DNA from: Vicinamibacterales bacterium
GTDB taxonomy: Bacteria; Acidobacteriota; Vicinamibacteria; Vicinamibacterales; UBA8438
Length of the DNA: 64,000 nt
Direction of reading: 5' to 3'
Assembly: GCA_965116845.1 (NCBI GenBank)
Contig: OZ220728.1
Span: 5,434,637-5,498,636, forward strand
The notes under the pieces were generated by a model. It ran no database searches. It was not told the DNA's origin and worked only from the letters and a program-made list of their open reading frames with translations. The stretch's first letter is position 1; each line of letters begins with the position of its first letter. A program made the translations under genes and the position numbers. Positions 3,246-4,894 of this stretch are shown one piece after another.

Positions 3246-3275
3246 GTTGACCTGGTCGTCTTCATGGTCAACAAT
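3246..3275 (+). promoter_or_regulatory. Sigma70-like promoter and palindromic operator of the TA operon
   Basis: TTGACC (3247-3252), 17-bp spacer, AACAAT (3270-3275), ATG 7 nt later; inverted repeat GTTGACC-N13-GGTCAAC overlaps it. Confidence 0.65.
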
Positions 3276-3282
3276 ACGACTG

Positions 3283-3759
3283 ATGATTAGGGTAAACCTA
3301 GCCGACGCCAAGTCGCGACTCTCCGAGTACCTCAAGAGCGTTGAGCGCGGTGAGATCGTGATTCTCTGCCGACGCAACGTGCCCGTGGCGGAGATTCGCC
3401 CCTTGCCGAGGCCCCTCACTGAACCTCGCCCCATCGGCACGGACCCTGATCTGGTGATCCCGGACAGTTTCTTCGAGCCCCTTCCCGAAGACGTGCTTGA
3501 CGCGTTCGAGGGGCGTGGCTCGGATTGGACGGATCCGCCGACGCCGAAGGATAGTGTCCTCAAGCGAACGGAACGACAGCTCGCCGACCGGCTGAGAACG
3601 TTCTTCGCTCAAAAGCACGACGCGCCGCCGCGTGAGGTCCCGCGGAAGCTGATCGAGGTTATCGACTGTCTCCAGGCGTCGCGCGCTGCGGACCAGGATC
3701 TACTTGTGGCGAGTGCACAGGAATTCTTGCTTGCGGAACAGAGGAGGGTTGCGCGGTGA
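3283..3759 (+). CDS. Phd/YefM-family antitoxin with ~80-aa C-terminal extension (158 aa)
   Basis: [40 protein letters not shown]...[17 protein letters not shown] is a typical Phd antitoxin; the ORF continues past the usual end. Confidence 0.85.
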
Positions 3760-4508
3760 ACAGGAGGCTGCTGGACCTCACGATGTGTCGTGCAGGCTGG
3801 GGCAGGGGCCAGTCGCTTGATCTGGATGTTGGGCAGATTCAAGTAACCTGCGATCCTGAAGTCTTGCCCAACCTCCTTCGAGTCAAGGCCAGTGAACTCC
3901 CGCCCGATTTTCTCTCGTGGCCCTCGCGTTCTGGCTGCGCTTTGCAGTGCCTGTACTCGCTCTCGCCAGCAGGTCGCGGCCCGACGACACGCCGGAGTGC
4001 CGAGGCCGTGAAGCGAAGCAGCAACACCGAGGAGGTCGAGCTCGAACTCGTCAGCGGATGGCCCGGCGAGCCGCACTACTGGGGCAACCGGTCGGTTCAT
4101 GACGAAGAGGTGGAGGCCGCCATCCACGGCTTGGTGCCCTCTGGCAAAATCGTCTTGCTGAGCGTTCCGGGAGAGCATGACGCCAACGGCAAGCCTCGCG
4201 CGCGGATCTTGAAGTCCGAAGACGACTCAGCCGTGCTGTTTATCGCCGCCTCGCTGGAGGATGCGGGGATCCTCTCGGGCGTCGCTGATCGGCTGTGCGA
4301 TACGGGAATGTTGGTGCAATGCACGAGTGACGCGTCTTCGTTGAAGAGTACGCGAATGATAGGCACCAGTTTCCGGCGGACCGACAAGCGCGCGCCGGTA
4401 GTCACCCGCTGGTTGGGTGGCCACGGCACTCGCTCCCAACATACAATGGAACGGCAAGACGGATCTCCATGGCCAATTCCGGAACGCTGGCGCGGAGTGT
4501 CGCCGTGA
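3756..4508 (+). CDS. Hypothetical protein (250 aa) between antitoxin and toxin
   Basis: GTGA start/stop overlaps with both neighbours; no recognisable motif; lower GC than core genes. Confidence 0.6.
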
Positions 4509-4894
4509 CACTTCTGCTCGACACTTGTACCTTCCTTTGGCTCGTGACCGAAGATCGGCGGCTGCCGCTTCGTACCAGGGCGGATTGTCGCGATCCGACA
4601 AACGCGGTGTACCTCAGTGCGCTTTCGGCGTGGGAGATAGCGATCAAGTGTCGACTTGGCCGGTTGTCCTTGCCGGAATCGCCGGAGTTCTTCGTCTCCA
4701 GCCGTCGCCAGCGACTGCAGATCGAGCCGCTGCCGTTCGACGAGCGGGACGCAGCACACGATGGCGTGCTTCCCCAGCACCACCGAGATCCATTCGACCG
4801 AGGCATCATCTCGCAGGCGATCTTGCGTGGCTTGACAATCGTGACGCCGGACCCCGTGATCGCGCGCTATCCGGCCCCCGTGCTCTGGCTTTAG
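4505..4894 (+). CDS. vapC: VapC / PIN-domain toxin (129 aa)
   Basis: LLLDT, SAWEIAIK, HRDPFDR and VTPD motifs; conserved acidic residues present. Confidence 0.9.
   Translation: MTLLLDTCTFLWLVTEDRRLPLRTRADCRDPTNAVYLSALSAWEIAIKCRLGRLSLPESPEFFVSSRRQRLQIEPLPFDERDAAHDGVLPQHHRDPFDRGIISQAILRGLTIVTPDPVIARYPAPVLWL

Follow-up and report, generated by a model that had tools for sequence, protein, structure and literature searches.

A conserved three-gene Phd-X-VapC cassette in acidobacteria, a candidate three-part toxin-antitoxin system

A three-gene cassette that encodes a Phd-type antitoxin, a protein here called X and an RNase toxin of the VapC type is conserved in soil and marine acidobacteria. We studied the copy found in a window of 64,000 nucleotides from the genome of a Vicinamibacterales bacterium (contig OZ220728.1), in which the antitoxin carries a long C-terminal extension and X is predicted to bind it. 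Our tentative explanation, to which we give a little under an even chance, is that the cassette is a three-part toxin-antitoxin (TA) system of type II that follows the partner-dependent logic of the tripartite TA-chaperone (TAC) systems, with an unrelated, non-SecB protein in the third role. We regard this as the best supported explanation because of the conserved architecture, the strict co-occurrence of the extension and X, the co-fold, the natural variants and the dN/dS values.

Layout, conservation and origin of the cassette

All three genes lie on the plus strand. The gene of the phd-type antitoxin (3283-3759, ATG start, 158 aa) is followed by gene X (3756-4508, GTG start, 250 aa) and by the gene of the VapC-type PIN-domain toxin (4505-4894, GTG start, 129 aa). 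Because both junctions read GTGA, each stop codon overlaps the next start codon by 4 bases, at 3756-3759 between antitoxin and X and at 4505-4508 between X and vapC (both plus strand). The first overlap is kept in 13/16 loci, the exceptions being a 5-nt gap in two of the 16 and a frameshifted extension in one, and the second is kept as RTGA in all 16. The GC content by codon position supports coding in these frames, the extension and X included, and it led us to reject the minus-strand ORFs at 3609-4178 and 4097-4984, which are also without Pfam support. From this layout the antitoxin, X and the PIN/VapC nuclease are predicted to be co-transcribed and translationally coupled. The reading frames, the two GTGA overlaps, the single promoter-like site and the dyad described in an earlier note on this DNA were all recovered in place.

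The promoter region contains a dyad with 7-nt arms, GTTGACC at 3246-3252 and GGTCAAC at 3266-3272 (plus strand), that are 100% complementary and separated by a 13-nt spacer. It is overlapped by a sigma-70-like site, TTGACC-17-AACAAT (3247-3275, plus strand). A promoter scan of positions 3000-5200 returned two sigma-70-like sites, with 0.3 expected from shuffled sequences. A promoter-like site inside the operon, at 4418-4447, was discarded because relatives do not share it. The 7-bp dyad is found in perfect form in this copy only. Shared by 16/16 loci examined is a set of RGTCA/TGACY boxes with positions near -30, -18 and -7 relative to the start codon, the chance expectation being 0.05-0.26 per 45 nt, and this set is a putative operator at which the antitoxin would bind.

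The core of the antitoxin (residues 1-78, 3283-3516, plus strand) consists of the N-terminal Phd/YefM domain followed by the segment where the two-gene relatives end. The Phd/YefM match is confined to residues 1-38, where PF02604 (E 3.4e-6, 27.2 bits) stays under its cut-off of 29.8 and TIGR01552 (22.8 bits) passes its cut-off of 20.8; homologues of the antitoxin carry a precomputed PF02604 assignment. The core is 77-88% identical to that of relatives (dN/dS 0.09), and we presume that its terminal segment binds VapC. The toxin had been described as intact, and this is borne out by a PF01850 match well over the cut-off (E 8.4e-12, 46.2 bits, cut-off 23.6) and by five acidic residues, D6, E44, D95, D98 and D116, which we take to be the PIN catalytic positions and which are invariant in 16/16 (toxin dN/dS 0.13). 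For another PIN toxin, the available portion of PMC10440598 names D6 and E43 as catalytic residues. The locus has both marks of a type II Phd/YefM-VapC system, a Phd/YefM antitoxin domain and a PIN toxin with its acidic residues. The usual Phd/YefM-VapC layout has the antitoxin directly upstream of the toxin; here a gene of 753 bases, X, separates it from vapC, and the two-gene form is seen in relatives whose VapC is 52-68% identical.

The extension comprises residues 79-158 and the stop codon (3517-3759, plus strand), and X is predicted to dock there. As the DAFEG motif ends at residue 77, 81 residues remain after it, in agreement with the earlier observation that the antitoxin runs about 80 amino acids past its usual end. 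The extension is missing from the 82-aa antitoxin, ending ...PLPEDELKLWEGG, of L015, a paralogous pair of canonical type in this genome, and from 15/15 two-gene relatives, in which the antitoxin match stops shortly before vapC. The long-form antitoxins that were aligned have 155-166 aa, and in this alignment the extension residues L104, F107, L123, V126, Q131 and E146 are nearly invariant (extension dN/dS 0.45). The homologues also include roughly 15 clusters of short antitoxins (88-110 aa). A search with the extension by itself returned eight proteins, all of them close Phd-type antitoxins, and, within a reach limited by the word index, gave no sign of it on other antitoxin families.

Both X and vapC are intact at 19 distinct loci, and at 17 of them the antitoxin is intact as well. 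Among 301 sampled genomes of the class, all 14 full-length copies of X adjoin a VapC match and none was found away from vapC. The earlier note had proposed looking for the same gene order in other genomes and had argued, from the clean coupling of the genes, against a random insertion; the arrangement is retained in 19 distinct loci, which marks the three-gene unit as genuine and conserved and not a random insert. The hosts of the cassette are uncultured acidobacteria, and the case presented here is built on computed evidence.

In a tree of the Phd core and VapC, the three-gene forms fall in one clade (support 97/97). It is made up of 22 three-gene rows and a single two-gene row, and 14 further two-gene rows surround it. 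This tree requires two changes of state, and by this reading one event inside a clade of plain Phd-VapC pairs added both the extension and X, which were lost together once. None of the 15 two-gene relatives has the extension or X, so the co-occurrence of the two is strict. Locus L026, the two-gene row within the clade, retains a remnant of the X C-terminus, which indicates that the extension and X were lost there in a single deletion that kept the core and VapC. Distance correlations between the parts (mirror-tree) were all high and fail to single out the extension-X pair, the partial correlation being 0.43 between the extension and X and 0.52 between the extension and VapC.

Gene X and its predicted complex with the extension

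We found 100 homologues of X, of about 250 aa and with 49-89% identity, and a dN/dS of 0.29 over 104/105 pairs. Judged by its sequence conservation, X is a real gene with a family under purifying selection. The earlier note had named as one refuting case a unique non-coding insert in a plain Phd-VapC pair, which is contradicted by the homologues and by the dN/dS. The ratio is below 1, as under purifying selection, for both X and the extension, and both evolve faster than the core and VapC.

A profile search had been proposed for X, and none of the known families searched matched it. At E up to 1, Pfam and NCBIfam returned 0 families for X and PADLOC-DB 2.0 returned 0 families for all three proteins; PHROGs and the ESM Atlas gave no match to X. 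In a profile search of the PDB with 39 X sequences no chain fell below E 0.3, the best being a designed protein at E 0.32. A representative library of 1.84 billion proteins contained one full-length X cluster and otherwise fragments. X was not found in viral contigs, plasmids or phages, and a scan of JGI metagenome contigs with the X alignment gave 98 pattern matches, 0 of them confirmed. Two apparent remote relatives were discarded: P0111 (1463 aa) is a mucin-like repeat protein and its match is spurious, and L010, from Leptolyngbya, matched over 25 residues, which we put down to chance.

The AF2 model of X (pLDDT 73.9) has a beta-barrel-like N-terminal domain (residues ~1-105) and an alpha/beta domain (~112-216), followed by a conserved tail. 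The polar residues R12, S59, Q64, C65, E83, E97 and E118 are invariant. Foldseek comparison of the model with the PDB and BFVD gave nothing at E 0.001 or better, and VIA-align gave Z-scores of at most 7.4 for the whole model and at most 5.6 for the C-domain alone, which is the range of common arrangements. The structural neighbours of the N-domain are weak (Z 5.4-7.4) and mostly phage tail-tube, distal-tail and baseplate-hub proteins, and those of the C-domain (Z 4.4-5.6) are, with few exceptions, winged-helix modules that bind DNA or protein. The C-domain modelled alone is poor (pLDDT 60.2). A type III secretion chaperone fold, suspected for this domain from its alpha-beta3-alpha-beta2 order, is unsupported, with none among the best 50 matches.

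The tail of X (residues 208-250, 4377-4505, plus strand) is a highly conserved region with a motif that closes in ...RW, for which the model is of low confidence (pLDDT <50 at residues 216-233). Its invariant columns are R208, T217, R218, W219, G221, G222, G224, R226, Q228, R244 and W245, and its dN/dS is 0.24. Since the third codon positions of the tail vary, the constraint acts on the protein. The tail may be a second binding site; its strong conservation is left unexplained by the TAC-like model.

Co-folding of X with the extension had also been suggested at the outset, and it placed antitoxin residues 79-158 on X with a median score of 0.73, compared with 0.00 for the best of three controls. 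The three runs scored 0.00, 0.75 and 0.73, with a pLDDT of the partner of 39, 73 and 71 and a contact agreement of at least 11%. The mark of 0.73 was reached by 116/157 solved complexes and by 2/215 mismatched pairs, counts that are only a rough guide because our own alignments were used. In the predicted complex X binds the extension across a sheet surface made by both of its domains, and the extension lies on X as helices, in three helical segments. The predicted interface includes all six nearly invariant residues of the extension and, on the side of X, W15, G16, W109, G110, N111 and R112, each of them invariant or close to it. The pLDDT of 39 for the undocked partner in the failed run would fit an extension that folds upon binding.

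Proposed mechanism and alternative readings

In the TAC-like mechanism that we propose, the N-domain of the antitoxin would repress the operon at the RGTCA boxes and residues ~55-77 would keep VapC inactive. The free extension would render the antitoxin unstable or incompetent until it is bound by X, so that VapC would remain neutralised or not according to the amount of free X, and the tight coupling of the three frames would cause each antitoxin to be made together with its partner. Should X be titrated or destroyed, by stress or by a phage product, the RNase would be released and growth would be arrested. Points against such a model include the co-fold run that scored 0.00, the lack of a detectable chaperone family or fold for X, the distance correlations, and an order of genes (antitoxin, X, toxin) and a length of extension (80 aa, three helical segments) unlike those of TAC.

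Natural variants bear on the role of X. Where vapC is intact, three lineages (L026, L028 and L002) have a broken or deleted extension and none has a broken X, a pattern made of few events in which some of the indels may have arisen when the genomes were assembled from metagenomes. In L028 and L002 the extension is broken and both X and vapC are intact. In remnants with a broken X, vapC is also broken in 5/5, a count to be read in the light of the fact that deletions from the 5' side that kill the toxin naturally also strike the upstream gene X.

These variants weigh on the idea that X is an accessory scaffold or co-regulator that docks on the extension and alters how the operator is bound, or the stoichiometry or size of the complex, its weakly winged-helix-like domain and its Arg-rich tail being the possible means, and that the antitoxin needs no X to neutralise VapC. 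Locus L026 agrees with this idea, as its core is compatible with an intact vapC in the absence of X. Although X is an approximately threefold larger target, 0 lineages with an intact vapC have lost it, compared with three that have lost the extension. This speaks against the idea and argues that X cannot be freely dispensed with as long as the extension is there. The winged-helix neighbours of the C-domain would suit a co-regulator, but their Z-scores are within the range of chance arrangements and DNA binding is already supplied by the Phd N-domain. There is precedent in the available part of PMC4803016, where the third protein is a regulator in omega-epsilon-zeta and paaR-paaA-parE and where PasC only enhances neutralisation. 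On balance we consider an accessory role unlikely.

The predicted X-extension interface would equally suit a toxin-antitoxin pair, in which case X would be a further toxin or an effector, and a bifunctional antitoxin would neutralise VapC with its core and X with its extension. Type II operons normally run from antitoxin to toxins, many polar residues of X are invariant, and the faster evolution of X and the extension relative to the core and VapC is as expected of specificity interfaces. However, L028 and L002, with a broken extension beside intact X and vapC, should be lethal if the extension alone kept such a toxin in check, with the caveats that G094 has a second copy with an intact long antitoxin, which could act in trans, and that assembly errors may be involved. 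We also found no enzyme-like family or fold for X and no X away from vapC, and we hold a second toxin to be quite unlikely.

A sensor role for X, in line with the phage-sensing module raised in the earlier note, is very unlikely in our estimation. Here the N-terminal barrel, or else the disordered tail with its conserved motif, would capture a structural protein of an infecting phage and free the extension, whereupon the antitoxin would fail and VapC would stop translation (abortive infection); a link to phage was sought in PADLOC, PHROGs, phages and viral contigs, with no match to the module. Lastly, GC-rich DNA yields long chance ORFs on both strands, but the reading of the middle region as a non-functional insertion or spurious ORF in an effectively plain Phd-VapC module is already refuted by the conservation data and retains practically no credence, given the length-conserved homologues of X, its dN/dS and frame-specific GC3 pattern, the stop-start overlaps kept at both junctions and the confidence of the AF2 model.

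To our knowledge, chaperone addiction in TA pairs has until now involved SecB homologues and the families HigBA, MqsRA and HicAB. If the TAC-like mechanism is true, the combination of a destabilising tail and its own keeper has arisen two or more times from unrelated parts, in this case on a chassis, Phd-VapC, that is very common. Next to the three-gene form, both the ancestral form with two genes and a natural revertant are available, which makes the cassette suited to study how a third component rewires toxin control. It also offers a route to the function of the orphan protein family X, and the extension-X pair could act as a portable dependency tag like ChAD-SecB.

Comparison with known systems

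The earlier note had likened the module to tripartite TA-chaperone systems. The likeness stands for the logic, with an antitoxin extension and a dedicated third gene, and falls for membership, since X is not SecB-like by sequence and the module is therefore outside the TAC family. According to the available portions of the papers on HigB1-HigA1-SecB(TA) of Mycobacterium tuberculosis (PMC5105189, PMC6377645), TAC combines a classical TA pair with a C-terminal antitoxin extension lacking in two-component relatives, as we found here, and the extension is bound by a dedicated protein, the product of a third gene in that operon, which has been shown in TAC and is predicted here. Deletion of the TAC extension yields a chaperone-independent antitoxin (PMC5105189, portion available), and in both systems a pair that lacks the partner can exist once the extension is lost. 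Going by the same portions, the third protein of TAC is a SecB-family chaperone, whereas X is not SecB-like by sequence (0 Pfam and 0 NCBIfam families), its model giving no clear fold match of any kind. The TAC pairs are HigBA, MqsRA or HicAB rather than Phd-VapC, the term "VapBC" not being mentioned in the available text of PMC5105189. The TAC extension is a short ChAD peptide, in contrast to ~80 aa predicted to form helices on X, and the third gene lies here between antitoxin and toxin, unlike the TAC order. Neither a Phd-X-VapC module nor a TAC-type system on VapBC is described in the openly accessible full texts that our search covered.

Other three-gene systems are closer in some respects and more distant in others, as far as the available part of PMC4803016 describes them. 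In pasABC of plasmid pTF-FC2, also a three-gene type II TA system, the third protein is neither the toxin nor the principal repressor and is believed to assist the antitoxin; the gene of PasC comes last, and an antitoxin extension is not described, and we set X beside PasC by description only. The omega-epsilon-zeta and paaR-paaA-parE systems likewise have three co-transcribed genes around a TA pair, but their third protein is a transcriptional regulator that is encoded first and is not bound to an antitoxin extension, and the antitoxin studied here, unlike that layout, keeps its own DNA-binding domain. The closest relatives by homology are the plain Phd/YefM-VapC pairs, L015 and the 15 two-gene relatives, which share a homologous core (44-82% identity) and VapC (52-77%), the same vapC start, the same acidic PIN residues and an upstream antitoxin. 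They differ in being without the extension and without X, their antitoxins having 82-92 aa and ending at or just past ...FEG.

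Organization of the cassette and its upstream region

The three open reading frames claimed in the earlier note, with their two GTGA overlaps, were confirmed from the sequence. They are the antitoxin gene (3283-3759, plus strand, 158 aa, Phd/YefM match), gene X (3756-4508, plus strand, 250 aa) and vapC (4505-4894, plus strand, 129 aa, PIN domain PF01850, E 8.4e-12), with a 4-base overlap at both the antitoxin/X and the X/vapC junction. Codon-position GC follows a coding pattern in the named frame across all three genes, the second half of the antitoxin included, and the GC content of the cassette is 62-63% versus 68.6% for the window. 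The antitoxin is long, as had been proposed: it continues past the ...FEG motif where the antitoxins of plain two-gene pairs stop, and its similarity to Phd/YefM in Pfam and NCBIfam is restricted to residues 1-38.

A promoter-like site (TTGACC-17-AACAAT, 3247-3275) upstream of the antitoxin gene is overlapped by the perfect dyad GTTGACC-N13-GGTCAAC. The 45 nt preceding the start codon are conserved throughout the three-gene clade, and RGTCA or TGACY boxes near -30, -18 and -7 occur in 16 of 16 loci (expectation 0.05-0.26 per 45 nt); the dyad reported in the earlier note is perfect in the window and represents this copy's form of two of these boxes. Because the -10-like hexamer ends 7 nt ahead of the ATG and no Shine-Dalgarno is evident before the antitoxin gene, translation of this gene may start from a message with little or no leader. 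Within X, upstream of vapC, there is another promoter-like site (TGGCCA-18-TACAAT, 4418-4447); conservation of its hexamers was looked for in relatives and none was found.

Conservation, mobility and origin

When one genome per species was scanned, 9 real loci emerged, and every one belongs to a MAG labelled Vicinamibacterales, Vicinamibacteria or Marinacidobacterales; whole-genome searches provided further ones. The same three-gene order, which the earlier note had suggested seeking in other genomes, recurs at 19 distinct loci in which neither X nor vapC is broken; the antitoxin gene is intact as well at 17 of them. Detailed analysis covered 16 loci (exact duplicates and L002, L006 and L007 excluded); all of them have the 4-base overlap between X and vapC, while the antitoxin-X overlap is present in 13, with a 5-nt gap in two and a frameshifted extension in one. 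X was matched in 16 of 301 sampled genomes of the class, where a full-length X lies directly upstream of a VapC match in 14 of 14 cases; VapC matches (E <= 1e-30) occur in 79 of the 301, a tally that counts the unpublished G244 and G113, which enter no other. At the level of the phylum, X is found in 7 of 401 sampled genomes, two of them outside the class.

The window's own genome carries a second full cassette 364 kb away (G000:C1, about 5074190-5075860; L012 1022-2693) with both 4-base overlaps, in which X is 69% and VapC 85% identical and X is 269 aa long, its C-terminus being longer by about 19 residues. The flanks vary by locus and include a HEPN_Swt1-DUF499 gene, MmeI-type methylases, transposases and plain housekeeping genes, which indicates that the cassette moves as a unit. 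In the window it is followed by a 109-aa remnant (5057-5386, plus strand) that matches the MmeI C-terminal domain (E 2.4e-5, under the cut-off) and by an IS21-type element (5906-8214, minus strand; istB 5906-6700, istA 6658-8214), and the cassette thus lies within a restriction-modification and mobile-element patch. Divergent from it is a 1003-aa ORF (93-3104, minus strand) whose NPPF-type motif ([…[11 protein letters not shown]…]) resembles that of N6-adenine methyltransferases and which has zero Pfam families at E <= 0.001; it is a candidate for a large methylase or restriction-like protein not yet described. In one relative, a defence-like neighbour of 1087 aa with Swt1-like HEPN and DUF499 lies upstream of the cassette (L001 2-3262), and an intact MmeI-type gene follows it in L006.

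The VapC relatives with 52-68% identity belong to plain two-gene pairs whose antitoxin stops at the ...FEG motif, and the window's own genome also contains a paralogous two-gene pair, with an antitoxin of 82 aa. In a maximum-likelihood tree of antitoxin core (residues 1-78) plus VapC (37 rows, 31 different; 3 truncated-VapC rows excluded), all 22 three-gene rows fall in a single clade (support 97/97) nested among two-gene rows. The sole two-gene row of this clade, L026, is sister to a three-gene locus (support 99/96) and still has, between a 92-aa antitoxin and vapC, a remnant of the final X codons, implying that the extension and X were lost together in one deletion. With the tree rooted only at its midpoint, it is the nesting and this remnant that indicate the direction of change. 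The module elaborates on a Phd-VapC pair; it arose once, is conserved and is mobile. L026 (G022:C1 109219-109602) has an identical second copy (6456854-6457237); the two lie near the two ends of a one-contig genome and could be a repeat that spans the assembly junction.

The X family and its predicted binding to the extension

The profile search of X proposed in the earlier note returned zero matches in Pfam and NCBIfam. A word-indexed search returned 100 homologues (49-89% identity, nearly all of 247-252 aa), none with a Pfam domain and the few with names all 'hypothetical protein' of Acidobacteria. A phmmer search of all 1.84 billion representatives found one full-length X cluster plus fragments, so the family is compact, with remote kin undetectable. 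Among 39 aligned members, 46 columns are invariant, and median pairwise dN/dS over 15 loci (L028 excluded; 96-104 of 105 pairs usable) is 0.29 for X, 0.45 for the extension, 0.09 for the core and 0.13 for VapC, values that are rough given a dS of about 0.9-1.0. With homologues, this dN/dS and the kept gene order, X is not a random insert, in agreement with the earlier note, but a genuine gene belonging to an orphan family.

The AF2 model of X (pLDDT 73.9, pTM 0.68) has a beta-barrel-like N-domain (1-105), an alpha/beta domain (112-216) and a low-confidence tail. Foldseek against PDB and BFVD gave zero matches at E <= 0.001. VIA-align matched the N-domain (Z 5.4-7.4) chiefly to phage proteins (tail-tube, distal-tail and baseplate-hub), with some matches to FMN-binding and PilZ barrels, and the C-domain (Z <= 6.0) mostly to winged-helix modules; since the tool calls such Z values common, we assign X no fold. 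Few stretches of X are as conserved as the tail ([18 protein letters not shown]...RW), and because the synonymous sites of the tail vary, the constraint acts on the protein.

The extension (residues 79-158) is less conserved than the core but keeps its helical pattern and six nearly invariant residues (L104, F107, L123, V126, Q131 and E146). Co-folding it (42-row alignment) with X (39-row alignment), another suggestion of that note, scored 0.00, 0.75 and 0.73 in three runs (median 0.73; partner pLDDT 39, 73 and 71; contact agreement between runs at least 11%) against a best of 0.00 for three controls. The 0.73 mark is reached by 116 of 157 solved complexes and 2 of 215 mismatched pairs, counts that hold only roughly here because our own alignments were used. 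The predicted interface contains all six conserved extension residues and, on the X side, strands of both domains with the conserved W15, G16 and W109-R112. The models support a predicted binding between the two added parts, X and the extension.

Natural variants, proposed mechanism and known systems

An intact vapC with the extension gone or broken was found in three lineages, by deletion in L026, a 4-nt indel in L028 and +2 and +1 indels in L002. A broken X beside an intact vapC was found in no locus, though the X gene is three times the extension length, and in all five X remnants (G154, G192, the second copy in G094, G267 and a fragment in G161) vapC is also broken. This pattern would be expected if X is indispensable as long as an active toxin is guarded by an antitoxin that has the extension, and if loss of the extension removes the need for X; it rests on few events, MAG indels are possibly errors, 5'-side deletions killing vapC necessarily enter X, and G094 has an intact long antitoxin elsewhere. 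In the G094 copy (L056/L057, G094:C1 948644-952381) a 2.75-kb insertion interrupts X after residue ~153; residues ~151-153 (ILK) are matched on either side of it, which looks like a target duplication, and vapC is frameshifted near residue 75. In G192 (L038 1126-1794) a deletion has fused the first 125 residues of X, in frame, to VapC residues 32-128, leaving a fusion ORF without the first PIN aspartate.

We tentatively favor partner-dependence of the antitoxin as the most likely mechanism, in which the antitoxin with its extension would depend on X. An accessory or regulatory role of X seems rather unlikely. That X is a second toxin is less probable again, and lineages with a broken extension beside intact X and vapC speak against X being a toxin kept in check by the extension alone.

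A full-text search found no account of a Phd-X-VapC module. Among the systems described in the parts of the literature consulted, PasABC, with its helper encoded last, and omega-epsilon-zeta and paaR-paaA-parE, with the regulator encoded first (PMC4803016), are more distant than the toxin-antitoxin-chaperone (TAC) systems. In TAC, HigA, MqsA or HicB antitoxins carry a C-terminal ChAD extension to which a SecB-like chaperone binds; this extension destabilises the antitoxin without the chaperone, and its deletion makes the antitoxin chaperone-independent (PMC5105189). TAC is the closest system, and its anatomy and evolutionary behaviour are common to the module described here. Two defining features of TAC are absent, X showing no likeness to SecB in its sequence and the toxin-antitoxin pair belonging to another family.
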